Positions 12,188-32,000 of a stretch of DNA of 32,000 bases are shown here, one piece after another. Source of the DNA: Moraxella nasicaprae (GTDB taxonomy: Bacteria; Pseudomonadota; Gammaproteobacteria; Pseudomonadales; Moraxellaceae). Location: contig NZ_CP089977.1 of the NCBI RefSeq assembly GCF_025643275.1, forward strand, positions 2,010,001 to 2,042,000, in the 5' to 3' direction. The notes beneath the pieces are model-generated. The model had not been told where the DNA came from, searched no databases, and was given only the letters and a program-made list of their open reading frames with translations. The position numbers and the translations under genes are program-made. Numbering within the stretch: position 1 is the first letter of the stretch; each line of letters begins with the position of its first letter.

Positions 12188-12196
12188 TCTTTTGTA

Positions 12197-15411: not shown

Positions 15412-15433
15412 TAAAGTCCATTTGGGATTATAT

Positions 15434-15468
15434 AAAACCAGTACGCCATCGTGCTGGTTTTATTTTAT
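15434..15468 (+). terminator. Rho-independent terminator after the lipoprotein gene
   Basis: Stem aaaaccagtacg (15434-15445) / cgtgctggtttt (15450-15461) with one G-U pair and loop ccat, followed by a T-rich tail. Confidence 0.75.
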
Positions 15469-15588
15469 CTGATGGTATGTGATTTATAAAAATTATAATA
15501 TATGTAAAATTGATTAAAAAAACCAATTATAATAATGATAAAAAACTTTGCCCAAAATCCAGCAAATGATGCACGCCATCAAAAATTT

Positions 15589-15597
15589 TGTTATAAT
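15589..15597 (+). promoter_or_regulatory. Predicted extended -10 promoter element for fba
   Basis: TGtTATAAT at 15589-15597, about 50 nt upstream of the fba GTG start in an AT-rich intergenic region. Prediction from sequence only. Confidence 0.4.
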
Positions 15598-15646
15598 AGA
15601 AAAATAACTTTGTGATACATTTTTTATTCATCATCAGGAGAACATC

Positions 15647-16684: not shown

Positions 16685-16705
16685 TCTTGAATACTGATTG
16701 AGTTG

Positions 16706-16745
16706 ATAAACCAAGTTCAATATTGGGCTTGGTTTATTTTATATG
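16706..16745 (+). terminator. Probable rho-independent terminator after fba
   Basis: ataaaccaag (16706-16715) pairs with cttggtttat (16728-16737) and is followed by a T-rich tail. The loop is fairly large at 12 nt. Confidence 0.55.
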
Positions 16746-16764
16746 AAATAAATGATGGGGTAGA

Positions 16765-18061: not shown

Positions 18062-20005
18062 TTAAAAGCTCATCCCCAAACTTACACCACTGACCCAATC
18101 TTTGTTTGAAAAACCTGTGGGCTCACTAATTGCTTTTGAGGTGAAAACATCGTAATTAAAACTTAGGTGGGGGTTGTTTGTGTTTGGTGTGTATTGTCCT
18201 TTGATACCTATGGCAGCACCTGCTAGATGTTGTCCAAGCAATAGCTCATTTTGGCTTTTGTCGTGGTTGCTAACATAACCTGCATCCAATCCTAGATAGA
18301 TGGCATGGCTAGATTGGCTGTTTTGTGAGTTGTTTTGATTGGTTGTGGTGCTTTGTTTGGTTGTTTGTTGTTGATTTAGAAAGCTTGGATAAAAGCTGAT
18401 ATCTTGTCTTATCAAGATGCCATTATCCGCAGATAATGAACGCTCTCCATCAAAACCTCTGACGGTGTATCTGCCACCAATCGCCATTTTTAAATCTGGT
18501 GTTAGACTGTCAGTGGCGTATTGGGCTTTGAGTGTGGTGCTGTGGACAACGGGTAGTGGCTTATTTCTTATGATTGGATTGTATCTACTGGTTAGACCCA
18601 AGGTTAGCTGATAGATACCAACACGAGATGAGCCTTCATCAAACAGCTCTTCTGGCGATGGCAAGGCATTAAAAGCGGCGGTACCACGTTTATAAGAAAT
18701 ATCGGTGCTTAGGCTATGATTGGCTTGTTTGCCAAAAGCGGTCTCATGGCTAATGCCAAATAAATAACCTGCAGTTTTACGGGTTTGCACATCAATGGTC
18801 GTACCATCAATATCACTTTCTTGGGATTTGATATAGCCGCTAGTATATACATGGCTTTTACTGCGAGCATCTCTATGCACCAGATGAGATAATTTGGCGG
18901 TATATTGATTGGACTTACCGCCATAGACATAATCTTGGTTACTACCCGCCACAGTTTGATGGTAGGTGTAGTGATTGGCGTTGAGTTGTAATAAGCTGTT
19001 TTTAATGGGAATAACATAACCCATACTGTAATTCTTAGAGCCTTTGCTCTTATCAGACGGATAGTCTTTGTCATCATTGATTTGATTACCCAAATCTCGC
19101 CCAAAGCTAAGATAGAATAAATCATTATAGTTTGCCAGATTATCTAGGCTAAGTGTCGCCATGCCTTGATATTTGCCTGTGGATTTAGAGCCTGAATCAT
19201 CAATGCTTAGACTGCCACGAAGACGGCGGTGTTGGGCATAATCAATTAAAATATCACTAAAGCCAATGCCGTTACCAACAGGTTTATTGTTTTTATCATG
19301 ACCAATTGCTTGCAACCCATCAGATGGTGCAATCTTAAAATTGGCATCAGCACTTGGCACGCGTTTAAAGTTCTCAAGCGTGGTTTCCAAATCACGGATG
19401 TTTAACAGCTTACCTGATTGAGTGGTTAAGGCGGTGTCTAAGATAGCAGGATAAGCCATATTTGTCTGTTTAACATAGACAGGTACTTTACTATCGGCTG
19501 TATTGACCACCACCTGAGCAATCTTACCTGGGATTAAGGTTAATCTTAACTTCCCACCTGCCAAATTCTGATCAGCTACCATAATACGACTGGTGACATA
19601 GCCTTTGTCAATCAAGCGATTTTGCACACGAGTGGCAATGGCATTGATGTCAGCAACTGTCATGCACTTACCTAATACACTGTGATTACCCATGATTTCA
19701 GGCATGAGTGCAAAGCCAAGCTTGTCTGCAAAGATGGCATCATCAGCTGATAACACCGAATAGCTTATCTGATGAATATCAAAGCAAATGGCGTTATCTG
19801 CTACGGCTTGTTCTTGGGTTTGGGCAACCATATTGGCAGAAACAGCATCCACCACCACGCTTGGATTTGGCACTAATTGTTCAAGCAATGCCTGATTGCG
19901 AGCATCTTGGGTTTGGATTAGGGTTTGGTTGGCGGTGTTGGCAGAGACGGTGTTATGAACCAAAATTGCAATAATTGTGGTGGCAAGGATTGTTGGTCTA
20001 ATCAT
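18062..20005 (-). CDS. cdiB: Two-partner-secretion outer-membrane transporter (ShlB/FhaC/HecB family, CdiB/TpsB)
   Basis: 647 aa. Signal peptide MIRPTILATTIIAILVHNTVSA. POTRA-type block GKCMTVADINAIATRVQNRLIDKGYVTSRIMVADQNLAGGKLRLTLIPGKI. C-terminal beta-barrel with RYTVRGFDG and a terminal ...GMSF. Adjacent to and divergent from the large exoprotein. Confidence 0.92.
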   Translation of the reverse strand: MIRPTILATTIIAILVHNTVSANTANQTLIQTQDARNQALLEQLVPNPSVVVDAVSANMVAQTQEQAVADNAICFDIHQISYSVLSADDAIFADKLGFALMPEIMGNHSVLGKCMTVADINAIATRVQNRLIDKGYVTSRIMVADQNLAGGKLRLTLIPGKIAQVVVNTADSKVPVYVKQTNMAYPAILDTALTTQSGKLLNIRDLETTLENFKRVPSADANFKIAPSDGLQAIGHDKNNKPVGNGIGFSDILIDYAQHRRLRGSLSIDDSGSKSTGKYQGMATLSLDNLANYNDLFYLSFGRDLGNQINDDKDYPSDKSKGSKNYSMGYVIPIKNSLLQLNANHYTYHQTVAGSNQDYVYGGKSNQYTAKLSHLVHRDARSKSHVYTSGYIKSQESDIDGTTIDVQTRKTAGYLFGISHETAFGKQANHSLSTDISYKRGTAAFNALPSPEELFDEGSSRVGIYQLTLGLTSRYNPIIRNKPLPVVHSTTLKAQYATDSLTPDLKMAIGGRYTVRGFDGERSLSADNGILIRQDISFYPSFLNQQQTTKQSTTTNQNNSQNSQSSHAIYLGLDAGYVSNHDKSQNELLLGQHLAGAAIGIKGQYTPNTNNPHLSFNYDVFTSKAISEPTGFSNKDWVSGVSLGMSF

Positions 20006-20041
20006 AGGTGCATTCCAGCAGCGTATTTAAGAATATTACAT

Positions 20042-20070
20042 ATTGTAACCATACAAACACAATCTTACAA
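20042..20070 (-). promoter_or_regulatory. Predicted sigma70-type promoter for cdiB
   Basis: On the minus strand: -35 TTGTAA (rc of 20065-20070), 17-nt spacer, -10 TACAAT (rc of 20042-20047). It lies about 37 nt upstream of the cdiB ATG. Prediction only. Confidence 0.35.
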
Positions 20071-20087
20071 TCTCATTTAAATTACCA

Positions 20088-20116
20088 TTGCTGCATTTAT
20101 ACATATTTGTTACAAT
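20088..20116 (+). promoter_or_regulatory. Predicted sigma70-type promoter for cdiA
   Basis: -35 TTGCTG (20088-20093), 17-nt spacer containing a TG extension (20108-20109), and -10 TACAAT (20111-20116). It lies 32 nt upstream of the cdiA ATG. Prediction only. Confidence 0.35.
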
Positions 20117-20148
20117 GTAGTTGCTCTGCATTTTAAAAGAAAAGCTGT

Positions 20149-20334
20149 ATGAACCGCATATATAAAACCGTCTTTAACAAATCCACACAGACTTGGATGG
20201 CGGTTTGTGAATATGCTCGTCGTGTTGGTTGTGGCGGTGCAAGTAGCACCAGCAAATCTGCGGCACGAGGCGTAGCGGGTTCTATTACTTTCTTATCCTT
20301 TGCAGTACTTATGGCTTTACAGTCAGCCCATGCA
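20149..20334 (+). other. Extended signal peptide region (ESPR) plus Sec signal of CdiA
   Basis: The MNRIYK..FNK...W.AV.E.A.R motif is typical of ESPR-bearing TPS/autotransporter proteins. It is followed by the hydrophobic core ITFLSFAVLMALQSAHA, with predicted cleavage after AHA (aa 62). Confidence 0.75.
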
Positions 20335-23300
20335 GGCACCCCCACCACCATCATCGCTGACTCATCTGCCCCTAAAAATCTACAACCCATCATCTTAAAT
20401 ACCGCAAGCGGCATCACCTCTGTGAATATTGCCACCCCCAATGCTCGTGGCTTATCCAATAACCATTACAGCCAGTTTGATGTCGGTAGCACAGGTGCTG
20501 TATTAAATAACAACCGTAAAGCAGTGGGTACCCAAATCGCAGGCTTTGTGGCAGCCAACCCTTTTATGGCTCGTGGCGAAGCCTCTACCATCTTAAACCA
20601 AATCAATTCCAATAATCCAAGTCATTTAAATGGCTTTGTTGAAGTGGCAGGTAAAAAGGCAGATGTCATCATTGCCAATCCCAATGGTCTTATCATCAAT
20701 GGTGCTGGCTTTATCAATGCTGGTAATGTCCATCTGGCAGCAGCAAATGCCCAAGTAAAACAAGGGCAATTATCAGCTTATCAAGTCGGCAATGGTGATA
20801 CTGGCAATATTCAAGTCAATGGCAAATTAAACCTACAAGGCACCGATTATGCTGCTCTCATCGCTAAAACCGCCCAAATCAATGATGAAATTTATGCAGG
20901 AAAACAGCTGGATGTTATCCTAGGTGAAAACCAAGTCAATCTTCAAAACGGTGATTTTACCAAGCTTAATGCCACCAATAAACAAACCCATGTATCATCT
21001 GCTAGCCAAACCACCAATAAAGAACAACAAGGCGTTGCCTTAGATATTTCATCATTGGGCGGAATGTATGCAGGTAAAATCCACCTTGTCGGTACAGACA
21101 AAGGCTTTGGGGTCAATAACCAAGGGGTCATCACAGCAACCGGCAATGGACAACAACTTGGCACAGGTACACTCACGCTAGATAGTCAAGGCAATCTTGT
21201 CAATACAGGCACCATGTCTGCTAAAGATAAACTTGCCATCAACACCCATGATAACACCACTCAAAACGATGGCACCTTGTTAAGTGAACAAGCTGATATC
21301 GCCATCAATACCGCAAGTCTTAATAACACAGGTGCCATTCACAGCACCCAAACCACCAAGATTGCAGCCAAACAAGCGATTGAAAACCTTGGCAGTGTCT
21401 ATGGCGGTGTTTTGCAAGTGGATACGGATAAGCTTAATAACACCGGCCAGCTTATCCAAACTGGTACAGGTAAGCTTGATATCACCACCAATACACTGAC
21501 CAACTCCGATAAAGCGGTTATCGGTCAAAGCTTGTATGGACAAACCATCATACCCACACCTTCTACCCCAAGCAGCGATCAAAGTGCTGGTAGCATTAGC
21601 AATACTCCTATACAGACAAGCACAACAACAGGTAATATCGCCACAAACCCAAATACGCAGACTTTAAACAAACCATCCACCCCAAACGCTAACGGTCATA
21701 TTACTGCCAGTCAGTCTTTGACTAACACAGGCAATCAAGCACTCATCACTGCCACAGGTGACATCAGCATCAATGCTGATAAAACCCATAACACCAAGCA
21801 AGCATCGATTGATGCCGCCACTTTAAACACCAACACTCTTGTCAATACCGACAGTAAAATCGCCTTAGATGATATTAATTGGCAATTGACTCGCTTTGAT
21901 AACAGCAAAGGTAGTATCACTGCCAAAGATGGTATGGTGATTGGCAGTGAATCTGCCATCATCAACACAGGTGGCAGCTTAACAAGCGGTGGCGATATGA
22001 CACTTATCGCCAAAGACAGGATTATCAATCAAGACGGCACCATTACCGCGGTCAAACAAGCAGATATTACTGCCAAAGAGGTGCAAAACGGCGGCAGCAT
22101 CACGGCTGATACACTTACCATCACCCAACAAGCCGACTACGCCCACACAGATCAAGATAAGCTTGTTGCCAATCGCTTAGCGTTTACAACAAGTGGTAAG
22201 CTGATTAACCAAAGCCAATTAACCGCAGGTCATGATTTGACACTGAACGCCAAACACATTGACAACAGCCAAACAGGTATCATCACCAGCGGCAATCACA
22301 CACAGATTACTAGCCAAACAAACATCACCAACCAAGGCTTAATCAATGGTGAAAATACACTCATCAAAGCCAAAAACACCATCAACAATCTTGCCGGTGG
22401 TCGTATCTATGGCACGCATCTTGCAATACAGGCTGATACGCTAAATAATACGCCAGCAAAAGCTGTCAACCAACAAACCAATCAAGAAAATGACCATCAC
22501 ACCGCCCCTGTCATCGCAGCCAGAGGGCGTCTGGATATCGGTGTTAATCACTTAAACAACAACCCCAATCCAGATAGAGCAGGTAAATTTAATAAAAACT
22601 TTGACAGTCAAGCTTTAATCACAAGTCTTGGCAGTCTGCACATCGGTGGTAGCCTAGATGACAACCATCACGCCACAGGCAAAGCACAGACGGTTATCAA
22701 TAAAGGGGCAACCATAGAGTCTGGTGGACAGATGCAAATTGCCACCAGCACCTTACTAAATACCAATGCCGACTTTAAAAAGCATACGGTCAAAGTGGAA
22801 GCCGAATCCGTTTATGGACAAACACTTTACCGCAACCGTGAGCAATCTGGAGTGCCTGCCACCCAAAAAAGCACCAACATAGCCGATTTGGGCAAAAAGC
22901 CCATGGCAGGTTTATTTGACTGCCCTAAAGGCAGTGAATGTATTGTCAATTATGATCACAACTCCACCATTTGGTCATACTTTAAGATTGAACCACCCAA
23001 ACAGCCTGTTCCAAACATCAAAGCCAAAGACCTGTTAGATGAACCTGACTTACCAAAAGGCGAGACCACTCAAAGCTGTGCCTTGGCGGGTGCAAACAAT
23101 CAAGCCTGTGCCCAATACAACAAAGATCTGGCGAATTACACCAAGGTCATGGGGCCATTATTAAAATGGGAAGAAGATAATGCTGCCTCCATTGAGGCAC
23201 TGGAGCTTGCCATTCGGGAGCATAACCGCCAATTTAATAAAAATAAAAGCGATGTGGATTTGGCGTTAAACATCTACACCACCGATGAAGCATATTTAGG

Positions 23301-26300
23301 TCCAACCAGCCGTAAAGGTGCACCAGATGGTGCTTTGTATGTCAAAGATGTCAGTGGTAACTTTTATCGCCTCACTGAAGAGGTGGATGTCATTACCACT
23401 GACTTTGTCGTCTATGAAGATAAAACTCTATCTTCTGACCCTGCTCGTATGGTATCAGGAGAAAATCTTATCATCCATGGCGACACCTTAATTAACGATA
23501 AAAGCCAAATGAATGCGGGTAATGGCTTTGCAATCATTGGTGATACCGTGATTCAAACACCTGACAATGGCTTGCATGGTGAAAAAACCAAAGTCACCGA
23601 AAATGGTCGCTTTACCAGATATAGCGTATTTGCCTCAGGAATTAACCGCCACAAGCGCAAAGCAACTGGCGGTGGTAGCTTTACTCAATCCTTTGCACCA
23701 CTAGCAACGTATGAACTTCCCATCTTAAACGCTACCATCAATACCACACCAAGTAGCACCAAGATTGATGAGCTAGCCACAGGCAATGATACTTCTGTGA
23801 TTGTTGATGTTAAAGACAGTACCATCACCTTACCAACTTCAGCCCTCTACATCATCAACGCTGACAATCCCAATCTACCACTAATTCAAACCGACCCTGC
23901 ATTCACCAATTACAAACAGTGGCTCTCCTCTGATTATATGCTAAAAGCCCTACAATCAGACCCAAATCACATCCACAAACGCCTCTCTGATGGTTATGGT
24001 GAACAACAGCGTATTAAAGATCAGTACTATCTACTGACAGGCAGACACATCAACACTGATTACCGCAGTCATGAAGATGCTTATAAAACCTTGATGGATA
24101 ATGGCATCACGGCAGCCAAACAGTTTAACTACACACTTGGCACGGCACTCACGCCTGAGCAGATGGCAACTCTCACCACGGACATCGTTTGGCTTATCAA
24201 ACAGCCCATCACGGTTGTCACCAAAGACAAAGATGGCAATAGCATCAGCAAAACCCAAGACGCCTTAGTGCCTAAGCTGTATCTGCGTTCTGCCAATGCA
24301 GATACTGGCACACTGAGTCCTGATGGCAGATACAGTGCCGTCTCAGCCAGAAGCATTGACATGCAGCTGACTGGCAATCTTGACAATAATGGCAACATCA
24401 TTGCCAAAGACACCGCAAACATCAATGCAAACAATGTCACCAATGACGGCGGTGTTTATGGTAACTTTGTCGCTGTCACAGCAGATAACACCATTGCCAA
24501 TCATGGCACCATGTATGCAAACAGTGCCATGAGGCTAAGTGCTGGCAATAACATCATCAACCAAAGCCAAACAGCTACCCATCACAATAAACAAGGGCAA
24601 AGCGCTTCATCTAACACCGCCATCACACGCATCGCCACCATCCGTGTAAGCGATGGATTAAAAGACCAAACAGATGACAATGGCAATCCATTAACCACCC
24701 TAAGTCTGCGTGGCAATCAGATCATCTATCAAGGTGCCGCATCAGACAACGCAGGTGGTAGTACCCACATGACCGCCAAAAACGGCATTAACATCACCAC
24801 CATCACCACAAGCAATCACATCAATGCTGTCGCTGATGAGAATAACTACTTTAACTACAGCCAAAGCACCGATGTGGGTTCAACCATCACCAGTCATGGC
24901 AACTTAACGATAGCCACAACAGGCAAAGATGCTGACATCAACATCAAAGGTTCAAGCCTACAATCAGACGGCATGACTGCTGTTATTGGGACAGGCGACA
25001 TTAGCATCACCGAAGGTCGTGCTACCCAAAGCTTGGATACAGCAAGTAAATTTACCAACAAAGGACTTGTTAGCAAAAAAACCACTCAAACCGCCTATCA
25101 GATGGACAGCAATACCAGCATTCAAAGTACGGTGGGTGGTGAGACTGTACTGATGAAATCAGGTAGGAATATGCAGGTTGTGACAACCAATGTACTTGCC
25201 GACAAAGACATTCTGCTTGCCTCAGGTGGCAATATGACCATTGCCAGTGCTGCTAATACACAAAGTATGCACGAATATTCACAGGTGGATAAAAAAGGCT
25301 TATTTACCACTTCGCCAACTTCTGCCACATTGGGTAAACAACGCACTCAAAATCAAGCAGATGCCATGCAGACCACCTATACAGGCTCGCTGATTGGTAC
25401 TACAGGAGGTAATGTTCGCCTAGTAAGTAATGACAGTCTTGCCATCACCAATAGCGATGTCATTGCCAAAAAAGATGGTGCCAACACCAATACAGGCAAT
25501 ATCTACATCCAAGCCACTGATGCCACCATCCAAAGCCAAAACACCATCAGCAACAACAGCCATCGCTTTGCCCAAAAAACCACAGGAGTGACTGCCAGCG
25601 TCTCTAGCAGTCTTGTTAGCGAGGTTCAAAGCCTAGAAACGCTAAAAGAGTCTGTTAATGACACCGACTCTCGCAAAGCTAAATTGGCTGGCACTTTAGC
25701 GGCAGCTTCCAAGGTTAAAACGCTTATCAATAACCTAAACAATAAAGACTTGGGTAGTCTAAGGGCTCAAGCCACTATTGGCTCACAAAGCACCAAGAGC
25801 CAAACCACAAGCCATCAAGAAACTAATGATGCTGCTAACCTTTTGGCTCAAAATAATCTGATCGTCAACCTTAAAGGCAAAGGTGCGGATTCGGATTTGA
25901 CTGTCATAGGTAGCAATCTTACAGTGGGCAACAACTTCTACCAATCGGTAGAAGGCGATGTCATCTACCAGGCCTCAACACAAACTGATACCACAAACAG
26001 CCAAAACAGCAGTAAAGGTTGGGGCGTGGGTATCTATGCCAGCACTCAGATAGGTGGTGGTCAATCCAATCACGGCTTTACCATCAATGCCAACAAAGCA
26101 AAAGGCAATAGTACTGAAACAACCACCACCCACACCAATACCCAAGTCACTGTTGGCGGTACAACCATCAATGACATTGGTGGCAATCTTATCCTAGATG
26201 GTGCCAATCTTGATACCAAGCACCTAACTGGTACAGTTGGCGGTGATTTGATTGTCAAAAGCCGTCAAGACACCTATCAATACACCCATGATCAAAAACA

Positions 26301-28035
26301 AGCAGGATTTAGTGCCGATGTTGGCTTTAATGGCAAACCCCAAAGCATAAGCATCAATGGTGGTAAAACCGATGTAGATGCCGATTATGCCCAAGTCACC
26401 CGCCAATCAGGCATCAAAGCCAAAGAGTCCACCCTAATCGTACAAGGACAAGGTAAGTTTACTGGTGGCTATCTCATCACCGATGCCGGTAAAAACCAAA
26501 CCCAGTTTGCCCAAGGTATCCAAACCCAAGACATTCACAACCATCTAGATTATGAAGGTGATGCCATCAGTGTCGGCATTGGTATTGGTGTAGACACCAG
26601 CAATCCAAATGGCAAAGCAAAACCTGCCCTACAAGGCCTAGGCTATGGTAAAATAGACCCAACTCATAAAACCAGTACCACCCATTCTGCCATCACAGAC
26701 CAAGCAGGGCTTAGCCATATTAATACAGACAACTTCAAACAAGCAGAAGTTCAACATGAGCTTAACCAAATCATCACCAATGATTTTAATAAAGAGCAAG
26801 TGCTTAAAGAGTTAAATGCTCAGGTGAATATTACTACTGAGTTTGGGAGAGAAGCTCCAAAAAGAGTGGCGGAGTTTGCCGACAACCAAGCCTTTAAACT
26901 TATTCAAAAGCTAGATGAACTTAATGATAAAAACATTGACATTGCTTCTGATGAGTATCAAAATACCATCAAAGAGATTGATAAGTGGAGCGAAGGTGGG
27001 GTTTATCGTGTGGCGTTGCATACGGCTGTTGGTGCTTTGGGGACAGGCACTATCGAAGGAGCAATATCAGCAGGTGCAACCGCCTACACCATTCCAAAGA
27101 TAGACGAATACCTAAAAGAACAAGGCTTTGATGAAACCACAAGACAAACCGCCTTGCTTACCTTATCAGCAGGCATTGGTGCGACTGTTGGTGGCGATAC
27201 TGCAAGCACTGCCAATAATGCTGGGCAGGTGCAGTGGAATTATTTGAGTCATAAGGAGAACGAAAGATTGAGAGAATTAAAAAAAGAGAAAGCTGGACTA
27301 TCTAACGCCTACGGCAATTGTGTATCTCAAAGATGTGCAGAAATTACACGAGAAATAAAAGTGCTTGAAGATCTCAGTAAACAACGAGATAAGGCGTTTG
27401 ATAAAGCTTATACAGACTGCCGTGCAGGCAAGGATTGTAATCAGTTTTATTATTTGCATGTCATTCAAAGAAGAGACTGGAATAAGGATGCAGAAGAATT
27501 ATTTAAGGTAAATCGCAGTGATTGGAAGCTGATGGAGGATTATCAAAATGCCTTTCACAACTACAATGCAAATGGCATTCCAGAAAAATTACCTAATGGT
27601 AACTACCGATACAAAAAATTTGTTCACAATAACGGGCAAATGGAAATAATTATTGATACAAAAGACGGTATTTTAAGTGATGATGACTACACTAGAATTG
27701 TAAGAGATCCAACCAATGCTGGAACATTTAATTATTACGCCCCCAGTGATGCTAGTGGTCATAAATTATATGATGTAGATCCGTATACAAACTTTGGGAA
27801 TGGTAAGGGCGACAAAACAACTCTATCAAACAGAAAAAATGTCATGCTACGCCTACCAGTCCCCTATACAAATTACACAGTTCCAATTGGAACTTCTGGT
27901 TTTTGGACAGGAAATCTACCAGGAAAAACCACAAACCCAAAAACAATGGGGGCAAATAGAATAACAAATAATGCCGAACGTAGCTTTAACGCATCACAAG
28001 ATTTTTGTGAGAATAATAAGGAGGATTGCAAATGA
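20149..28035 (+). CDS. cdiA: CdiA/TpsA filamentous-hemagglutinin-type exoprotein with a C-terminal polymorphic toxin (2628 aa)
   Basis: Extended signal peptide MNRIYKTVFNKSTQTWMAVCEYARR...ALQSAHA. The TPS domain has NNHYSQFDV and ANPNGLIING (NPNG at 20677-20688). Long FHA-type beta-helix repeats follow. A conserved central block reads HKRLSDGYGEQQRIKDQYYLLTG...LTTDIVWL...VPKLYL. The pretoxin region ends in VQWN (27229-27240), followed by a 264-aa variable C-terminus. Confidence 0.95.
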   Translation: MNRIYKTVFNKSTQTWMAVCEYARRVGCGGASSTSKSAARGVAGSITFLSFAVLMALQSAHAGTPTTIIADSSAPKNLQPIILNTASGITSVNIATPNARGLSNNHYSQFDVGSTGAVLNNNRKAVGTQIAGFVAANPFMARGEASTILNQINSNNPSHLNGFVEVAGKKADVIIANPNGLIINGAGFINAGNVHLAAANAQVKQGQLSAYQVGNGDTGNIQVNGKLNLQGTDYAALIAKTAQINDEIYAGKQLDVILGENQVNLQNGDFTKLNATNKQTHVSSASQTTNKEQQGVALDISSLGGMYAGKIHLVGTDKGFGVNNQGVITATGNGQQLGTGTLTLDSQGNLVNTGTMSAKDKLAINTHDNTTQNDGTLLSEQADIAINTASLNNTGAIHSTQTTKIAAKQAIENLGSVYGGVLQVDTDKLNNTGQLIQTGTGKLDITTNTLTNSDKAVIGQSLYGQTIIPTPSTPSSDQSAGSISNTPIQTSTTTGNIATNPNTQTLNKPSTPNANGHITASQSLTNTGNQALITATGDISINADKTHNTKQASIDAATLNTNTLVNTDSKIALDDINWQLTRFDNSKGSITAKDGMVIGSESAIINTGGSLTSGGDMTLIAKDRIINQDGTITAVKQADITAKEVQNGGSITADTLTITQQADYAHTDQDKLVANRLAFTTSGKLINQSQLTAGHDLTLNAKHIDNSQTGIITSGNHTQITSQTNITNQGLINGENTLIKAKNTINNLAGGRIYGTHLAIQADTLNNTPAKAVNQQTNQENDHHTAPVIAARGRLDIGVNHLNNNPNPDRAGKFNKNFDSQALITSLGSLHIGGSLDDNHHATGKAQTVINKGATIESGGQMQIATSTLLNTNADFKKHTVKVEAESVYGQTLYRNREQSGVPATQKSTNIADLGKKPMAGLFDCPKGSECIVNYDHNSTIWSYFKIEPPKQPVPNIKAKDLLDEPDLPKGETTQSCALAGANNQACAQYNKDLANYTKVMGPLLKWEEDNAASIEALELAIREHNRQFNKNKSDVDLALNIYTTDEAYLGPTSRKGAPDGALYVKDVSGNFYRLTEEVDVITTDFVVYEDKTLSSDPARMVSGENLIIHGDTLINDKSQMNAGNGFAIIGDTVIQTPDNGLHGEKTKVTENGRFTRYSVFASGINRHKRKATGGGSFTQSFAPLATYELPILNATINTTPSSTKIDELATGNDTSVIVDVKDSTITLPTSALYIINADNPNLPLIQTDPAFTNYKQWLSSDYMLKALQSDPNHIHKRLSDGYGEQQRIKDQYYLLTGRHINTDYRSHEDAYKTLMDNGITAAKQFNYTLGTALTPEQMATLTTDIVWLIKQPITVVTKDKDGNSISKTQDALVPKLYLRSANADTGTLSPDGRYSAVSARSIDMQLTGNLDNNGNIIAKDTANINANNVTNDGGVYGNFVAVTADNTIANHGTMYANSAMRLSAGNNIINQSQTATHHNKQGQSASSNTAITRIATIRVSDGLKDQTDDNGNPLTTLSLRGNQIIYQGAASDNAGGSTHMTAKNGINITTITTSNHINAVADENNYFNYSQSTDVGSTITSHGNLTIATTGKDADINIKGSSLQSDGMTAVIGTGDISITEGRATQSLDTASKFTNKGLVSKKTTQTAYQMDSNTSIQSTVGGETVLMKSGRNMQVVTTNVLADKDILLASGGNMTIASAANTQSMHEYSQVDKKGLFTTSPTSATLGKQRTQNQADAMQTTYTGSLIGTTGGNVRLVSNDSLAITNSDVIAKKDGANTNTGNIYIQATDATIQSQNTISNNSHRFAQKTTGVTASVSSSLVSEVQSLETLKESVNDTDSRKAKLAGTLAAASKVKTLINNLNNKDLGSLRAQATIGSQSTKSQTTSHQETNDAANLLAQNNLIVNLKGKGADSDLTVIGSNLTVGNNFYQSVEGDVIYQASTQTDTTNSQNSSKGWGVGIYASTQIGGGQSNHGFTINANKAKGNSTETTTTHTNTQVTVGGTTINDIGGNLILDGANLDTKHLTGTVGGDLIVKSRQDTYQYTHDQKQAGFSADVGFNGKPQSISINGGKTDVDADYAQVTRQSGIKAKESTLIVQGQGKFTGGYLITDAGKNQTQFAQGIQTQDIHNHLDYEGDAISVGIGIGVDTSNPNGKAKPALQGLGYGKIDPTHKTSTTHSAITDQAGLSHINTDNFKQAEVQHELNQIITNDFNKEQVLKELNAQVNITTEFGREAPKRVAEFADNQAFKLIQKLDELNDKNIDIASDEYQNTIKEIDKWSEGGVYRVALHTAVGALGTGTIEGAISAGATAYTIPKIDEYLKEQGFDETTRQTALLTLSAGIGATVGGDTASTANNAGQVQWNYLSHKENERLRELKKEKAGLSNAYGNCVSQRCAEITREIKVLEDLSKQRDKAFDKAYTDCRAGKDCNQFYYLHVIQRRDWNKDAEELFKVNRSDWKLMEDYQNAFHNYNANGIPEKLPNGNYRYKKFVHNNGQMEIIIDTKDGILSDDDYTRIVRDPTNAGTFNYYAPSDASGHKLYDVDPYTNFGNGKGDKTTLSNRKNVMLRLPVPYTNYTVPIGTSGFWTGNLPGKTTNPKTMGANRITNNAERSFNASQDFCENNKEDCK
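25990..26835 (+). repeat. Direct repeat copy 1 (846 bp), inside cdiA
   Basis: Matches 29384-30229 at an offset of 3394 bp. The encoded 282 aa are identical in both supplied translations. The antisense track ORFs 26070..26258 / 29464..29652 and 26224..26406 / 29618..29800 are also identical. Identity starts at a25990/a29384 (the preceding bases t and c differ) and ends at t26835/t30229 (the next bases a and c differ). Confidence 0.95.
27241..28032 (+). other. CdiA-CT toxin region of the primary cdiA (264 aa after VQWN); no family assigned
   Basis: Begins YLSHKENERLRELKKEK, immediately after the VQWN motif that occupies the VENN position. Contains six Cys (NCVSQRC, TDCRAGKDC, FCENNKEDC). I recognise no catalytic motif. 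Confidence 0.7.
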
Positions 28036-28133
28036 GAAGTAGTAAAGTATTTTTTTTACTAATCTGTATCTTTTTATTTGTTTTGATTGTATATAATATA
28101 TTATCAAATCATGTAATTAGAACTTTTTATTAA
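28032..28133 (+). CDS. Micro-ORF 1: 33-aa single-pass membrane peptide, candidate cognate immunity (cdiI) for the primary toxin
   Basis: The ATG overlaps the cdiA TGA (ATGA at 28032-28035). A strong AAGGAGG Shine-Dalgarno at 28018-28024 sits 7 nt upstream. My translation is MRSSKVFFLLICIFLFVLIVYNILSNHVIRTFY. The ORF is below the 60-aa cutoff of the track. Confidence 0.5.
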   Translation: MRSSKVFFLLICIFLFVLIVYNILSNHVIRTFY

Positions 28134-28156
28134 ATAGTACTACTGCTGTCAATTAA

Positions 28157-28240
28157 GGAATCAAAATTGCCCATGATTCTTTTGACGAATCTGAAAAATT
28201 ATGTGAAGCAAATAAGAGTAATTGTTATCATGAAAAATAA
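28157..28240 (+). pseudogene. Fossil 3' tail of a homologous cdiA-CT (module 2)
   Basis: My translation GIKIAHDSFDESEKLCEANKSNCYHEK* aligns with the primary toxin tail GANRITNNAERSFNASQDFCENNKEDCK* (A-x2-SF-x2-S-x3-CE-x-NK-x2-C). There is a stop immediately upstream and no start codon. Confidence 0.6.
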
Positions 28241-28343
28241 TTTATTTTTTATTTTTTTGTTTTTTGTTTTTATTCTGTTAATTATTTTTTCAAAGACTAT
28301 TATTGCTTATTTCTTAGTTTCATTTGGGTATGTTACTGTTTGA
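28230..28343 (+). CDS. Micro-ORF 2: 37-aa single-pass membrane peptide (orphan immunity candidate)
   Basis: The ATG at 28230 overlaps the end of fossil tail 2, the same arrangement as micro-ORF 1 with cdiA. My translation is MKNNLFFIFLFFVFILLIIFSKTIIAYFLVSFGYVTV. The Shine-Dalgarno is weak. Confidence 0.4.
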   Translation: MKNNLFFIFLFFVFILLIIFSKTIIAYFLVSFGYVTV

Positions 28344-28405
28344 TTTTACCTCTACATGATTCACATTAATAATCAAAAGTGTTTTCGAAATTAATGTTAA
28401 TATAG

Positions 28406-28546
28406 ATTTTATCAAAAACAGGAAAACCGCAGGCAATAGGGGCGGGTAGAATTATTAGTGAAAAATAAGACAAGCTAAAAAATAAGTTTGATAAGTCTCA
28501 AAAAATTTGTGAGAATGATTATGTTCGATGTGAAGAAAATGATTAG
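28406..28546 (+). pseudogene. Fossil 3' tail of a homologous cdiA-CT (module 3), with an internal stop
   Basis: My translation ILSKTGKPQAIGAGRIISEK*DKLKNKFDKSQKICENDYVRCEEND* aligns with the primary tail PGKTTNPKTMGANRITNNAERSFNASQDFCENNKEDCK*. There is an in-frame TAA at 28466-28468. Confidence 0.6.
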
Positions 28547-28637
28547 ATATTTTTGCATTGCTTTTGCAATCGGTGGGGTTTTATGGATCATACTTTACTC
28601 TTTAGCTGTGATAGGATTACTACATAGCAACTTATGA
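28539..28637 (+). CDS. Micro-ORF 3: 32-aa single-pass membrane peptide (40 aa if started at 28515), orphan immunity candidate
   Basis: The ATG at 28539 overlaps the end of fossil tail 3. My translation is MIRYFCIAFAIGGVLWIILYSLAVIGLLHSNL. In-frame upstream ATGs lie at 28515 and 28521. Its TGA overlaps the ATG of the next ORF (ATGA at 28634-28637). Confidence 0.4.
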   Translation: MIRYFCIAFAIGGVLWIILYSLAVIGLLHSNL

Positions 28638-29140
28638 ATAATCTTGGGTCTCTAGCACGGAAGAAAATTGGGAAGATGCTAATGAGAATTAGGATAAGAA
28701 GATTTATTCTTATAACAGCCATACTAATTATTCCCAGTTATTATCTGCTAAGCATGTATACCAGAGGATTGGATATAAGAAAGGATTCTATTTTGGGTGA
28801 AGCAATAGCGGATATCCCTTTCAAATATAATCCATCTAGGAATCTAGCAGTAACTCAATCAATTTCCATAAAAAATGGCAAATTGGTACATTATGTATAT
28901 ATTTTCAAATTTCATGGTGTATTTTATAATAAGAAACTTATTTTCAGCTTCAAGGGGGATGCTACATGCGGTGATTATAATTCAGAAAATGTTAATTCAT
29001 GGATAAATTGGCATGGTGATAGCAAATTAAAAATCAATATTAACAGCAATACGTTACAGAAAGTGTTAATAAAGGAAGAGAATTATGATAATGTTCAAAT
29101 TGATTACTTATATTATTTCGAATCCTGTAATAGGATATAG
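28634..29140 (+). CDS. Hypothetical membrane-anchored protein (168 aa), possible orphan immunity or accessory protein
   Basis: Track ORF. Basic N-terminus, one TM helix (RRFILITAILIIPSYYLLSMY), then a roughly 120-aa N/K/I/Y-rich domain. Extremely AT-rich and coupled by ATGA to micro-ORF 3. I recognise no family. Confidence 0.55.
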   Translation: MNNLGSLARKKIGKMLMRIRIRRFILITAILIIPSYYLLSMYTRGLDIRKDSILGEAIADIPFKYNPSRNLAVTQSISIKNGKLVHYVYIFKFHGVFYNKKLIFSFKGDATCGDYNSENVNSWINWHGDSKLKININSNTLQKVLIKEENYDNVQIDYLYYFESCNRI

Positions 29141-29212
29141 CACGTATAATGTGTATACATAATATTATTAAAATAGCCCGTAGATACCATCTCCCAACCC
29201 CAAAGTCAAACC

Positions 29213-29362
29213 CTAAATTGCCTGAATTTGTGGTTGGTAGGGTTTTTGGTGCTTAACCACACCAAAACAGATTTGTACCAATTTACGCATACAAGCATAT
29301 AGTACGGCAGGATGTGTGTCACACACCATTAATTTAAGCTGTTTTAGGATTGTGTTGCACGC
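29213..29362 (-). pseudogene. IS110-family transposase, C-terminal remnant (5'-truncated)
   Basis: The C-terminal 49 aa of the minus track ORF 29213..29539 read ..NTILKQLKLMVCDTHPAVLYACMRKLVQICFGVVKHQKPYQPQIQAI*. This resembles the conserved IS110/IS1111-type C-terminus (..NP.LK.FY.RL...GK..KVALVACMRKLL...FGVLK...P..) as I remember it. The rest of that ORF is antisense to the cdiA repeat and is not real coding sequence. Confidence 0.5.
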
Positions 29363-29383
29363 ACTACCACATGCTATGCCAAC

Positions 29384-30229
29384 ACCACAAACAGCCAAAA
29401 CAGCAGTAAAGGTTGGGGCGTGGGTATCTATGCCAGCACTCAGATAGGTGGTGGTCAATCCAATCACGGCTTTACCATCAATGCCAACAAAGCAAAAGGC
29501 AATAGTACTGAAACAACCACCACCCACACCAATACCCAAGTCACTGTTGGCGGTACAACCATCAATGACATTGGTGGCAATCTTATCCTAGATGGTGCCA
29601 ATCTTGATACCAAGCACCTAACTGGTACAGTTGGCGGTGATTTGATTGTCAAAAGCCGTCAAGACACCTATCAATACACCCATGATCAAAAACAAGCAGG
29701 ATTTAGTGCCGATGTTGGCTTTAATGGCAAACCCCAAAGCATAAGCATCAATGGTGGTAAAACCGATGTAGATGCCGATTATGCCCAAGTCACCCGCCAA
29801 TCAGGCATCAAAGCCAAAGAGTCCACCCTAATCGTACAAGGACAAGGTAAGTTTACTGGTGGCTATCTCATCACCGATGCCGGTAAAAACCAAACCCAGT
29901 TTGCCCAAGGTATCCAAACCCAAGACATTCACAACCATCTAGATTATGAAGGTGATGCCATCAGTGTCGGCATTGGTATTGGTGTAGACACCAGCAATCC
30001 AAATGGCAAAGCAAAACCTGCCCTACAAGGCCTAGGCTATGGTAAAATAGACCCAACTCATAAAACCAGTACCACCCATTCTGCCATCACAGACCAAGCA
30101 GGGCTTAGCCATATTAATACAGACAACTTCAAACAAGCAGAAGTTCAACATGAGCTTAACCAAATCATCACCAATGATTTTAATAAAGAGCAAGTGCTTA
30201 AAGAGTTAAATGCTCAGGTGAATATTACT
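29384..30229 (+). repeat. Direct repeat copy 2 (846 bp), the 5' part of the orphan cdiA-CT
   Basis: See copy 1 (25990-26835). Confidence 0.95.
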
Positions 30230-31483
30230 CAAGCATTTGATGCTGAACGCCGTGCCATTAGAAGTGAATTTGCTAAAAAAGCAGAAGACCATCGCAAACA
30301 AGCAGAAAGGCTATCAGATGACGACCCAAGAAAGACAGAGCTTGTACAAGAGGCCCAAAAGATTGAACAAAACCTAAGACTCTTCGATGGCATCACCTCT
30401 GCCTTGTATGCTCCTAATTCAAATGGTATTATAGGTGATGTGGCAAGAGCAGCAAGCCCAGAGCTTGCTTATCGGATTGGTCAAGAATTTAAAGAAAACA
30501 AAGCCCTAAACCAAACAGACAATGGTAACAGACCAGAAGAGCAATCAGCCAATCATCTACTGGCTCATGCCATACTTGGTGCTGCCACAAGCTATGCCAC
30601 AGGTAATGACATCGCCACAGGTGCCGTCTCTGCGGTAAGCAATGAGGCTGTCGCCCCAGTATTGTCAAATTACCTATATGGCACCAAAGAAACAAAAACA
30701 CTTAGCCAAGAACAAAAAGACACCATCACAAGCATTCTAAACCTAGCCACTGCTACAACCATCTACACAGCAACTGATGGCAGCACCACTGATGCAGTAA
30801 GTGGGGCTGAGATTGGGAAGGTTGGGGTGGAGTGGAATGCGGATACTATACGTCTAGATGGCAAAGATGCTCATGATAGAGTATTTGAAGCAGAAGCTAA
30901 ACGATTGTTTCCTAATAATCCTGAGTTGCAGCAGCAATATATTGCTCAACAAAATAAAAAAATTGGTGAAATTAGTTTAGCAATCATAATGACCGCTGTG
31001 CCAACCGAAATTTATGAGGTTGCACCAATCGGCAAAGGGTTTGGTATTATTGCAAAGGGAAGCAAGAAAGTTGTTGGTCTTTTTAAGAGCAAAGGAGATG
31101 CTGAAAAGGTATTGGAAGGAGCCAAGAAGCAATCTAAAGCTGATAACAACATATATAGAGATGATAGTTATGGCTATACTTGGTCGCAAGGAAGACCGCG
31201 AGATTTTAATCGAAATTTAGCCACTCACTGGAATAAGCATAAGCATGAATTTCCCGAGTTTCGGTCTCAAAACGATTATTATAGATTTGCAAGAAATTTT
31301 GTTGACAATCCTCCTGCTGGAACTCTAACTAAGGTTAGAGCTAATGGAGATATGGTATTTTATCAACCGTCAACAAATACTTTTGCTATCAAGGATAAAA
31401 GTGGTAGCATTATGACGCTATTTAAACCTGATGTTACAAAACATAAGTATGCTACAAATTTGGAGTATTTTCATGCACAATAG
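29420..31483 (+). CDS. cdiA: Orphan cdiA-CT: 5'-truncated CdiA C-terminal fragment carrying an alternative pretoxin region and toxin
   Basis: The frame is open from 29348 (stop at 29345-29347) with no credible start or RBS, no signal peptide and no TPS domain. The track start at 29420 is an internal GTG. The first 282 aa are identical to CdiA aa 1948-2229. The sequence then diverges (QAFDAERRAIRSEF...), reaches a DUF637/PT-like region (ANHLLAHAILGAATSYATG...) ending in VEWN (30827-30838), and finishes with a 214-aa distinct C-terminus. Confidence 0.85.
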   Translation: MGIYASTQIGGGQSNHGFTINANKAKGNSTETTTTHTNTQVTVGGTTINDIGGNLILDGANLDTKHLTGTVGGDLIVKSRQDTYQYTHDQKQAGFSADVGFNGKPQSISINGGKTDVDADYAQVTRQSGIKAKESTLIVQGQGKFTGGYLITDAGKNQTQFAQGIQTQDIHNHLDYEGDAISVGIGIGVDTSNPNGKAKPALQGLGYGKIDPTHKTSTTHSAITDQAGLSHINTDNFKQAEVQHELNQIITNDFNKEQVLKELNAQVNITQAFDAERRAIRSEFAKKAEDHRKQAERLSDDDPRKTELVQEAQKIEQNLRLFDGITSALYAPNSNGIIGDVARAASPELAYRIGQEFKENKALNQTDNGNRPEEQSANHLLAHAILGAATSYATGNDIATGAVSAVSNEAVAPVLSNYLYGTKETKTLSQEQKDTITSILNLATATTIYTATDGSTTDAVSGAEIGKVGVEWNADTIRLDGKDAHDRVFEAEAKRLFPNNPELQQQYIAQQNKKIGEISLAIIMTAVPTEIYEVAPIGKGFGIIAKGSKKVVGLFKSKGDAEKVLEGAKKQSKADNNIYRDDSYGYTWSQGRPRDFNRNLATHWNKHKHEFPEFRSQNDYYRFARNFVDNPPAGTLTKVRANGDMVFYQPSTNTFAIKDKSGSIMTLFKPDVTKHKYATNLEYFHAQ

Positions 31484-31718
31484 CAATAAATTCAATAGCT
31501 GTAAGATATGTGGTTACTATGAAAGCGGTTGGTTTCCATGGGGTGTTGATGGTAGAACGCCATCTTTTGATATTTGCCCCCAATGTAATGTGCAGTTTGG
31601 CTATGAAGATTGTAACGATGAGGCTATAAAAAGTTATAGAAAAGTTTATGAAGAGATGATTAAATATGACCAAAATAAGAAAAATTTCCATACCTATATC
31701 CATGGATGCTCTAAATAG
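31473..31718 (+). CDS. cdiI: Candidate immunity protein (cdiI) for the orphan toxin; small zinc-ribbon, CPCC-like cysteine-rich protein (81 aa)
   Basis: The ATG at 31473 overlaps the last codons of the orphan cdiA-CT. GGAG at 31462-31465 sits 7 nt upstream. The protein MHNSNKFNSCKICGYYESGWFPWGVDGRTPSFDICPQCNVQFGYEDCND... has a CxxC...CxxC pair. The track start at 31431 is probably over-extended. Confidence 0.65.
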   Translation: MHNSNKFNSCKICGYYESGWFPWGVDGRTPSFDICPQCNVQFGYEDCNDEAIKSYRKVYEEMIKYDQNKKNFHTYIHGCSK

Positions 31719-31792
31719 ATTAAATTACAATATCTGCGAAACCCAATAAAATCAATGGGTTGCATAATAATGATGGGTTACGCTATCGCTAA

Positions 31793-32000
31793 CCCAGCCT
31801 ACGGGCTGAAAAGAAATGTGAAGAACATGTTCAAAAATACGATAAAATTTCTGCAGAGCAAGACGAGGACTTACGTAAAACTTGTTCAAGCAATCCAAAT
31901 AATGTTGAGTGCCATCGTATGATGGAAGAGGCTTTGGAGTATGTGGGACGGAACAGAAATCATTATGGAAAGGCAAGCGATATCCAAGATTCGACCAAAA
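31793..32000 (+). pseudogene. Possible further orphan toxin fragment, open to the window end
   Basis: A frame is open from 31793 to the window end with no start codon at its beginning. My translation is PSLRAEKKCEEHVQKYDKISAEQDEDLRKTCSSNPNNVECHRMMEEALEYVGRNRNHYGKASDIQDSTK. This charged, helical, Cys-paired composition resembles the segment just after VQWN in the primary CdiA-CT (..CVSQRCAEITREIKVLEDLSKQRDKAFDKAYTDCRAGKDC..). Confidence 0.3.

Follow-up and report, generated by a model that had tools for sequence, protein, structure and literature searches.

Organization of the CDI locus of Moraxella nasicaprae

The window, a stretch of 32,000 nucleotides of the Moraxella nasicaprae chromosome, carries what its domain content identifies as a genuine CdiB/CdiA two-partner-secretion locus, followed by an orphan cdiA fragment (Table 1; annotated as cdiB UXZ04801, cdiA UXZ04802, orphan UXZ04803 and immunity UXZ04804). 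Loci and contigs fetched for comparison are referred to by L numbers. In the cdiA product, Pfam searches recovered a signal and a TPS domain at the N-terminus and FHA-type repeats after them, and the Omp85-type transporter CdiB is encoded next to it. Unlike in the published cdiBAI operon of E. coli, cdiB is divergent from cdiA, an order shared with L001, L004, L006 and L012. The GC content is 22–35% in the CT and immunity regions versus about 45% in the cdiA core. The island is probably strain-variable; it is missing altogether from a relative with 96.9% identity (one related contig, found via PGK look-up), which is thus uninformative about the repeat. Exact-protein look-ups of cdiB, P0001, P0164 and orf168 returned no contigs from other isolates; the locus is known from one genome.

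Table 1. Features of the CDI locus (positions in the window)
Feature	Position	Strand	Characteristics
cdiB, TpsB transporter, 647 aa	18062–20005	−	Pfam ShlB 1e-76, POTRA_2, POTRA_3; exact match UXZ04801.1
Primary cdiA, 2628 aa	20149–28035	+	Pfam ESPR 3e-11, TPS 5e-44, Fil_haemagg_2 5e-30; exact match UXZ04802.1
Repeat copy 1, homology arm	25990–26835	+	CdiA aa 1948–2229, end of FHA-2 region; Fil_haemagg_2 2.6e-18
Primary pretoxin region, DUF6862-type	26836–27258	+	Ends ...GQVQWN; weak Pfam DUF6862, E=0.0016, below curated cutoff
CT1, toxin now deployed, 258 aa	27259–28035	+	Homologue in L016/L017 at 91% aa identity
m35, 33-aa single-TM peptide, likely CT1 cdiI	28032–28133	+	ATG overlaps cdiA stop; AAGGAGG 7 nt upstream of ATG
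Decayed module 2	28169–28343	+	19-codon CT1-family tail remnant (28169–28225), then 37-aa TM peptide m58 (28230–28343)
Decayed module 3	28406–28637	+	CT1-family tail remnant with in-frame stop (28406–28531); 38-aa TM peptide m49 (28521–28637)
orf168, stranded orphan immunity gene	28634–29140	+	N-terminal TM segment; cognate toxin absent here
3' stub of probable IS110/IS1111-family element	29174–29383	−	Weak NCBIfam NF033542 match, E=0.036
Repeat copy 2, 5' homology arm of orphan	29384–30229	+	Base-by-base identity to copy 1
Orphan pretoxin region, PT-VENN class	30230–30838	+	Ends ...GVEWN; Pfam PT-VENN 3.8e-6
CT2, orphan toxin	30839–31483	+	N-terminal half and C-terminal colicin-D-like tRNase domain (~31205–31480)
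imm81, 81-aa CxxC...CxxC protein, likely CT2 immunity	31473–31718	+	ATG overlaps CT2 stop; GGAG upstream; exact match UXZ04804.1
Second orphan start, 5'-truncated DUF6862-class CT	31805–32000	+	Without pretoxin or arm; runs off the window

The orphan follows cdiA on the same strand, and its frame (29384–31483) holds only the end of Fil_haemagg_2 and PT-VENN, without secretion domains. Unlike the adjacent decayed toxin tails, this 687-codon frame is wholly intact, with neither stop nor frameshift. Its homology to the resident cdiA covers 846 bp at 100%; it stops 203 codons short of VEWN, and no sequence beyond that point is shared. The N-terminal 101 aa of CT2 are 83% shared with L018, the toxin half of which differs. 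The C-terminal domain matches PDB 8EY4_A (phmmer, 5.6e-21), and its model (pLDDT 84–93) is predicted to adopt the colicin D tRNase fold: Foldseek retrieved 8EY4, chain A of which is the CDI toxin of E. coli O32:H37, with a TM score of 0.93 and 44% identity, followed by the colicin D tRNase structures 1V74, 1TFO and 5ZNM. By its intact frame, modelled tRNase domain and overlapping immunity ORF, the orphan looks functional.

Downstream, imm81 is the likely candidate for the immunity protein of CT2. It has no detectable relative in the PDB, and searches of Pfam, NCBIfam and PDB assigned it to no known family, Pfam giving only a weak rubredoxin-like hint. The protein recurs without CT2 in metagenome contigs, at 100% identity in L019–L022 and as the same protein with 99.7% nucleotide identity in L023–L028. 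The second orphan corresponds to aa 23–87 of an orphan CT of L006 (13123–13863; 62% identity over 65 aa). A promoter and terminator scan was uninformative, with 43 promoter-like sites versus 40 expected from shuffled controls.

The 846-bp direct repeat and its two edges

Base-by-base comparison of the two arms at an offset of 3394 gave one unbroken identical run of 846 bp with 0 mismatches. Dense mismatches start immediately outside either end, and both edges are hence abrupt. A sequence-only reading of this DNA had described the copies as identical wherever compared and abruptly divergent at their ends, and had proposed an exact alignment as the check; the alignment bears out both statements, for 846 of 846 bp. 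The pair is the sole long repeat of the 32-kb window, as determined by repeat search and self-BLAST. Copy 1 begins at a codon boundary of cdiA (25990 − 20149 = 5841 = 1947 codons), and copy 2 shares the frame of ORF 29420–31483. The antisense ORFs, rightly reported as identical in the earlier reading, recur at the same offset of 3394 (26070–26258 and 29464–29652; 26224–26406 and 29618–29800), a trivial consequence of the identity of the arms. An exact match of this length cannot have originated by chance; such perfect identity points to a recent event or else to gene conversion acting between the arms. The reading had drawn that same alternative from an arm both unusually long and free of drift. 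The exact 846 bp stand, but the length is partly an ascertainment effect, because long perfect arms break short-read assemblies (L007, L008), and the lack of drift limits the age of the repeat only loosely.

At the left edge, copy 2 abuts the 3' stub of a probable IS110-family element, an illegitimate junction. The NF033542 match covers just the last 26 of 343 profile positions, and the stub had no match in Pfam and none in PLSDB plasmids. The same stub with the terminus ATAGCCYGTAGAYAC ends orphan modules at L006, L010 and L018, where it extends further, the copy in the window being more truncated. This sharp terminus, common to four loci, supports its interpretation as the end of an IS. A 33-bp piece of the stub also adjoins orphans at L003 and L007. 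Along cdiA, a sliding comparison with L001 and L002 detects no step in identity at 25990, indicating that the left edge belongs to the orphan and not to cdiA modularity. A hairpin within the stub (29314–29326) was considered as a dif- or REP-like site and rejected; its variant in L003 and L007 preserves LMV..HP.VL at the protein level, consistent with a coding remnant. Rfam searches over 27900–32000 yielded chance-level matches only and so lend no support to a structured RNA, for instance a bridge RNA. The hexamer CAACAC at the left junction is a possible microhomology, too short for interpretation.

The right edge is, judging from comparison of Moraxella CdiA sequences, a genus-wide module junction of pretoxin/toxin exchange. 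Native full-length Moraxella CdiAs continue at the same residue with a pretoxin of either DUF6862 or PT-VENN type. PT-VENN follows the arm in the native CdiAs of M. caviae (L002, 3231 aa) and L006 (2589 aa) as well as in L009, where cdiA is frameshifted; the DUF6862 class follows it in the full-length CdiAs of L004 (2668 aa) and L005, and many homologues of the primary pretoxin region carry the DUF6862 annotation. Homologue searches with the orphan- and primary-specific regions listed only proteins of up to 678 aa, and the full-length genes came from tblastn on the fetched loci; the short proteins are a property of the lists, not a sign of missing full-length genes. Unlike in published CDI orphans, the exchange point here lies 141–203 codons upstream of the VENN-like motif, so that the whole pretoxin class (DUF6862 versus PT-VENN) is swapped with the CT; the swap unit is the pretoxin class plus CT, not merely the CT after VENN. 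That whole pretoxin classes are exchanged at one fixed point ahead of VENN is an observation in its own right, and could matter more than the repeat.

CT1, membrane peptides and a stranded immunity gene

The 3394-bp interval is composite: CT1 with m35, two decayed copies of a CT1-type module, orf168 and the IS stub. All the contents listed for it in the sequence-only reading (pretoxin, toxin, micro-ORF modules, 168-aa ORF and IS remnant) were recovered, with their identities refined. CT1 had no match in Pfam, NCBIfam, PDB or fold searches, its structure model having a pLDDT of 65. The peptide m35 has a Kyte-Doolittle mean of 3.08 over 19 aa and is found directly 3' of CT1 homologues in L007 (83%) and L016/L017 (89%) as well. 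The CT1–m35 pairing is kept in three independent contexts, and m35 is likely to be the cognate immunity protein of CT1. The toxin remnant of module 2 aligns with CT1 aa 239–257 (tblastn, 47% identity, E=0.013), and m58 occupies the same relative position as m35. The remnant of module 3 aligns with CT1 aa 220–257 (tblastn, E=1.8e-4), and the homologue of m49 in L011 comes after a CT1-family gene. Positions 28661–29344 are 98.5% identical at the nucleotide level to 15303–15985 of L006, where an orphan CT of the PT-VENN class (14362–15324) has its stop overlapped by the orf168 homologue. A PADLOC search returned nothing. Single-pass membrane peptides of 33–38 aa emerge as candidate CdiI proteins for the CT1 toxin family, and such small candidates could also matter more than the repeat.

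Toxin switching and alternative explanations

[quoted passage not shown] 2011, PMC3150448; Ruhe et al. 2016, PMC4927057), and the present locus adds a probable case in Moraxella; our literature search found no dedicated description for this genus. Like the published orphans, this one is an apparently promoter-less, TPS-less cdiA 3' fragment that follows cdiA on the same strand and combines a VENN-type motif with a variable CT and a short candidate immunity ORF. As in those cases, cdiA sequence upstream of VENN could mediate recombination, IS debris is associated and the proposed trade-off is loss of the resident cdiI. Published orphans retain ‘varying amounts’ of homology upstream of VENN (PMC3150448; PMC4927057), whereas the present arm copies 846 bp exactly. 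The locus also resembles rhs of Salmonella Typhimurium. In that system a direct repeat occurs both in the full-length polymorphic toxin gene and in the orphan CT that follows it, and homologous recombination attaches the orphan toxin to the main gene. There the recombination was demonstrated experimentally, with an arm of 522 bp and 95% identity (Koskiniemi et al. 2014, PMC3967940); here the geometry alone is seen, with an arm of 846 bp at 100%, and the protein is a CdiA exported by two-partner secretion rather than an Rhs delivered by T6SS.

We consider it likely that this is a true orphan cdiA-CT/cdiI module set in a CDI island that varies between strains, a displaced former cdiA 3' end whose CT2 would be reloaded by recombination between the arms. 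Every structural prerequisite of the switching interpretation offered in the sequence-only reading holds (CdiB/CdiA, orphan order, identical in-frame arms, collinear fusion), and the interpretation is supported. The former 3' end, with its arm, PT-VENN pretoxin, CT2 and imm81, would have been displaced downstream, leaving a composite block of 3.4 kb between two copies of the 846-bp cdiA stretch. RecA recombination between long direct repeats is established biology, and the arms, which are direct and in frame, are of sufficient length for it. Since they are identical and in frame, a RecA-type crossover would excise 3394 bp and give a fused CdiA. The recombinant built in silico is, as had been predicted, a complete CdiA (7941 nt, 2646 aa, terminal stop only) with CT2 and with imm81 directly downstream. 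It is collinear, free of gaps, with the native 2589-aa CdiA of Moraxella sp. ATCC 23246 (L006; 75% identity over 297 aa spanning the junction). A collection of 15 billion proteins lacks the exact 2646-aa product, a weak test that covered proteins rather than reads. Neither a recombinant junction nor an excised circle nor a fused protein turned up in public data, and the contigs fetched for their exact match to imm81 carry that gene in the absence of CT2.

Any switching is likely to be rare and selected against, because the deletion costs four immunity-type genes, a loss that speaks against its frequent use as an adaptation. A deletant would no longer have m35 and the three other immunity genes, and its parental siblings would retain imm81. 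Deletants should thus arise regularly and be removed by their kin, so that the arrangement would persist. A switch would then be of benefit only once cells have dispersed, or if the locus had been duplicated beforehand; it is by such a duplication that Salmonella rhs avoids the loss of immunity (PMC3967940).

The same four losses on deletion also count in favour of a pure fossil or immunity archive (a fossil model is set out in PMC4927057): a displaced cdiA 3' end kept since imm81 would protect against CT2-deploying neighbours, its arm a by-product of recent insertion with no role in switching as deletants are always eliminated. Immunity genes do outlast toxins here and in relatives (m58 and m49 beside decayed tails, orf168 toxinless), imm81 occurs without CT2 in the metagenome contigs and the second orphan is wholly without an arm. 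However, CT2 and its 687-codon frame are intact beside decayed toxin tails, a perfect 846-bp direct repeat with copies 3.4 kb apart cannot avoid recombining (522 bp at 95% does; PMC3967940), and contig L007 suggests identical arms in a second genome, a hint of maintained arm identity. We therefore regard the archive as unlikely. Misassembly of a duplication, or identity created by consensus polishing of multi-mapped reads, is highly improbable. In the 2,106,666-bp genome, homogenisation of a few SNPs by polishing could account for part of the perfect identity, and related short-read assemblies break or cycle at the arm (L007 as a 2741-bp cycle, L008 as a 981-bp contig labelled cov 1123.9). Yet each copy has unique, coherent flanks (cdiA before and the DUF6862 pretoxin after copy 1, the IS stub before and the PT-VENN pretoxin after copy 2), the arm is joined to both pretoxin classes in other genomes, the same type of junction between IS stub and arm lies inside a 143-kb contig of L003, and assemblers collapse repeats rather than invent them.

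The structure is also exactly that expected from Campbell-type integration of a one-arm circle. A 3394-bp unit made up of arm, CT1 block and IS stub could accordingly enter and leave cdiA as a circle by single crossover in the arm and pass between strains by natural transformation, with gene conversion keeping the arms identical. The homologous unit of a Moraxella MAG (L007) assembles as the 2741-bp cycle mentioned above, with arm, DUF6862 pretoxin, CT1-family toxin, m35 and 33-bp IS piece; arms are identical within each genome (in the MAG at least at the k-mer level) and just 86% identical between the two, and a similar stub-to-arm junction lies in L003 and L007, 30 bp from that of the window. 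However, any assembler produces a graph cycle from a direct repeat, which is thus no evidence of circular DNA, the putative homology of the window junction with that of L003/L007 needs an extra deletion of 85 bp, and the unit has no associated recombinase. Such shuttling has very little probability in our view. Concerted evolution as such, in which gene conversion and not just recency keeps Moraxella orphan arms identical to the resident cdiA, would make the junction of IS stub and arm in the window, M. pluranimalium (L003) and MAG contig L007 an old, shared one; arms are identical within a genome and only 76–93% identical between genomes. We put this forward as a rather improbable scenario. 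If it were true, selection would maintain recombination-ready cassettes, which might even travel as circles that carry an arm, forming a cassette system for polymorphic toxins that needs no integrase.

As a displaced cdiA 3' end that could be reloaded, the M. nasicaprae orphan offers an unusually clean natural substrate for the CDI orphan-reloading model, which is still largely inferential. It combines perfect arms, an in-frame product, a recognisable CT2 fold and a definable cost, namely m35 and three other immunity genes. Moraxella are naturally associated with dense mucosal communities, and it is in such communities that kin surveillance could be measured.

Direct repeat and its genomic setting

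The 846-bp arm occurs twice, inside cdiA and at the head of the orphan cdiA 3' fragment. In a base-by-base comparison at an offset of 3394, the copies form a single unbroken identical run with dense mismatches directly beyond both ends, and the arm is the sole long repeat in the 32-kb window. Copy 1 starts exactly at codon 1948 of the 2628-aa cdiA ORF, while copy 2 shares the reading frame of the orphan. An in-silico join of the two copies takes out 3394 bp and leaves a 7941-nt, 2646-aa ORF with a terminal stop only. The sequence-only reading had claimed identical copies with abrupt edges, and an in-frame 2646-aa CdiA left by a crossover deleting 3394 bp. The exact alignment that it asked for is uninterrupted over 846 bp, with 0 mismatches, the join gives the expected product, and all its figures were correct on recomputation. 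The fused allele had no match in an exact-sequence look-up of a public protein collection.

CdiA carries ESPR, TPS and FHA-type repeats, and its divergent neighbour, cdiB, encodes a ShlB/POTRA transporter. The two genes are divergent in all Moraxella loci examined (the window, L001, L004, L006, L012), an order that differs from both the E. coli-type cdiBAI and the Burkholderia-type cdiAIB. Since the accessions of cdiA and the orphan are consecutive, the stretch between them seems to contain no annotated genes. Contig L015, 96.9% identical over window positions 6536-17380, passes from ruvA directly to yajC-secDF, without cdi genes; thus, the CDI locus is, by sequence comparison, an island that varies between strains; it begins near 17810 and ends past the window.

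Features of the locus and IS110-like stubs in related Moraxella sequences
Feature	Sequence	Position	Strand	Match or remark
cdiB	window	18062-20149 region		UXZ04801.1, exact-sequence match; divergent from cdiA
cdiA	window	20149-28035	+	UXZ04802.1, exact-sequence match
Arm copy 1	window	25990-26835		inside cdiA
CT1, primary toxin	window	27259-28035	+	258 aa
m35	window	from 28032		33 aa
Three tandem modules	window	28032-28637		m35, m58, m49
orf168	window	28634-29140	+
orf168-stub block	window	28661-29344		L006 15303-15985
Stub	window	29174-29383	-
Arm copy 2	window	29384-30229		head of orphan
Orphan	window	ORF ending 31483	+	UXZ04803.1, exact-sequence match
CT2, orphan toxin	window	30839-31483	+
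imm81	window	31473-31718	+	UXZ04804.1, exact-sequence match
73-bp segment	window	31735-31807		two short hairpins
Second orphan	window	31805-32000		runs beyond window
Stub	L006	15814-16040
Stub	L010	about 6650-6900
Stub	L018	about 3000-3260
Stub	L003	9957-10000
Stub	L007	2581-2624

Two edges of different kinds

For the right edge, window segments were compared by tblastn with 14 Moraxella loci and the residue after '...NAQVNIT' was inspected. At this point native full-length CdiAs carry one of two pretoxin classes. The orphan-like PT-VENN type is found in M. caviae (L002, 3231 aa), Moraxella sp. ATCC 23246 (L006, 2589 aa) and, with the same join in a frameshifted cdiA, M. caprae (L009); the primary-like DUF6862 type is found in M. 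nonliquefaciens (L004, 2668 aa) and, as judged by tblastn, in L005 and L007. The right edge is accordingly a module junction. The predicted recombinant aligns gaplessly across this junction with the ATCC 23246 CdiA (75% identity over 297 aa), so the exchanged unit is pretoxin plus CT, not CT alone; the motif follows the exchange point by 141 codons in the primary gene (VQWN) and 203 in the orphan (VEWN). The architecture of the predicted fusion already exists in nature. The proposed orphan toxin switching is therefore supported as a structural capability, by the in-frame product and by fusion-type architecture native in other Moraxella.

Compared with the cdiA genes of L001 and L002, the sliding identity of the window cdiA passes 25990 without a step, so this position is not a module border within cdiA; on its left side the repeat ends in an illegitimate junction. 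Directly upstream of copy 2 lies a block of ~210 bp, the stub, whose end, read on the minus strand, resembles an IS110-family transposase (weak NF033542 match, positions 318-343/343, E=0.036). It has a sharp common terminus, ATAGCCYGTAGAYAC. In L006, L010 and L018 the stub lies at the end of orphan modules and extends further than in the window, and a 33-bp piece of it is the exact 5' boundary of the long-arm orphans in M. pluranimalium L003 and the Moraxella MAG contig L007, which begin just 30 bp deeper in the arm than the window orphan.

The IS110-like 3' stub recurs at orphan-module ends in at least five Moraxella contexts, with constant orientation and outer terminus. Orphan 5' ends in L004, L006, L010, L011 and L016 cluster at pretoxin aa 34-59 (both classes), arm aa 181-216 and arm aa 1-11, which suggests a few founding truncations later spread by recombination. 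In L003 (1722-15664), the long-arm orphan follows the gene of a trimeric autotransporter adhesin (2520 aa), and there is no cdiA in the vicinity; because this large neighbour is not cdiA, the orphan has no partner arm close to it. About 165 bp upstream match the outer flank of cdiB in ATCC 23246, and one IS21 element (95.6% identity) lies behind the orphan arrays of both L003 and L006 (16148-19230). The L003 region resembles a CDI locus that has decayed or relocated.

The interval and the orphan module

All components that had been listed for the deleted interval (pretoxin, toxin, three micro-ORF modules, a 168-aa ORF and an IS remnant) were located. The DUF6862-type pretoxin region is followed by CT1, which had no family match or recognisable fold in family, structure and fold searches. 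The single-TM peptide m35 has a strong RBS, overlaps the cdiA stop and is kept in the same place behind CT1 homologues in L007 and L016/L017; it is the leading candidate for cdiI. Downstream lie two further, decayed copies of the CT1-m35 module, with CT1-type tail remnants of 19 codons and 42 codons (the latter containing a stop), each succeeded by a TM peptide, m58 and m49. The three tandem modules thus combine a CT1-family toxin tail with a 33-38-aa single-TM peptide, intact only for m35. As candidate CdiI proteins all three peptides are unusually small, and GenBank seems to carry no annotation for them. GC content is 22-35% across the interval parts versus about 45% in the cdiA core.

The block that reaches from roughly codon 10 of orf168 through most of the stub shares 98.5% nucleotide identity with ATCC 23246, whereas the cdiA arms of the two are only about 80% identical, which points to a recent horizontal exchange of a partial module. 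In ATCC 23246 the homologue of orf168 overlaps the stop codon of another toxin, a PT-VENN orphan; since that toxin is missing here, orf168 is a stranded immunity gene.

The orphan frame is unbroken from arm to stop. The last roughly 90 residues of CT2 are modelled with pLDDT 84-93 and match the CdiA-CT of E. coli O32:H37 (PDB 8EY4; sequence E=5.6e-21, TM 0.93, 44% identity), followed by the colicin D tRNase domain; the orphan looks functional, as predicted from sequence and model. Over its first 101 residues CT2 is 83% identical to the L018 orphan, whose C-terminal half is different, which fits the two-part organisation of CdiA-CTs. The 81-aa CxxC...CxxC ORF imm81, with GGAG, overlaps the CT2 stop and had no relative in family and PDB searches. 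Ten metagenome contigs encode its protein, in the absence of CT2, downstream of another PT-VENN CT and a 110-aa gene (100% nt in L019-L022; 99.7% nt, same protein, in L023-L028). It is probably a stand-alone circulating immunity gene, and immunity genes would thus circulate and persist apart from their toxins. The 73-bp segment just 3' of imm81, with hairpins AACCCA...TGGGTT and GGGTTA...TAACCC, occurs inverted in L019-L022 (97% identity) and may represent a short palindromic element that is mobile or can invert. Past imm81 begins a second orphan, a 5'-truncated DUF6862-class CT without pretoxin or arm, 62% identical to aa 23-87 of an ATCC 23246 orphan toxin.

Age, proposed recombination and its cost

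The arm had been called unusually long: at 846 bp and 100% identity it does exceed the arms in resolved arrays of other species (120-530 bp, 72-98%), but this comparison is biased, as perfect long repeats break short-read assemblies. L007 (2823 bp), whose ends overlap by 82 bp, closes into a graph cycle of 2741 bp. Its order, homologous to that of the window's 3394-bp unit, is arm, DUF6862 pretoxin, CT1-family toxin, m35, a stub piece of 33 bp and once more the arm. The cycle is either how the assembler represented a perfect direct repeat or, with lower probability, a cassette that is circular or amplified in tandem. An M. oculi contig consisting of the arm only is labelled cov 1123.9. Arm identity is 76-93% between species, 100% within the window and 100% over the comparable 81 bp within L007. 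This within-genome identity would reflect concerted evolution if the stub-to-arm junctions share ancestry, and parallel recent events otherwise. With a typical short-term bacterial substitution rate of about 1e-6 per site per year, 0 differences in 846 bp loosely bound the age at about a thousand years, to an order of magnitude. The lack of drift taken as a sign of recent formation or ongoing gene conversion thus gives only a loose age bound.

The repeat geometry is directly observed, and from it we infer the process. An arm-carrying block would have been placed before the old cdiA 3' end by a single crossover or homology-anchored illegitimate insertion, and, in reversal of this step, a RecA-type crossover between the arms would excise 3394 bp and leave cdiA equipped with CT2. 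The same process has been proposed for CDI orphans (PMC3150448, PMC4927057). In Salmonella rhs it was demonstrated with a shorter and less similar arm (522 bp, 95% identical), usually after prior locus duplication (PMC3967940). A deletant would lose m35, m58, m49 and orf168. Because these four putative immunity genes are lost and parental cells retain imm81, deletants would be inhibited by siblings without any gain against them; such inhibition would remove deletants and would account for the persistence of a perfect repeat that is intrinsically unstable. A switch would be of benefit only post-dispersal or with prior duplication.

A dedicated description of Moraxella CDI orphan arrays was not found in the searchable literature. 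The locus is a very clean case of the already published orphan-recombination model. The more original leads are the micro-peptide immunity candidates, the swapping of whole pretoxin classes and the IS stub that recurs at orphan-module ends.
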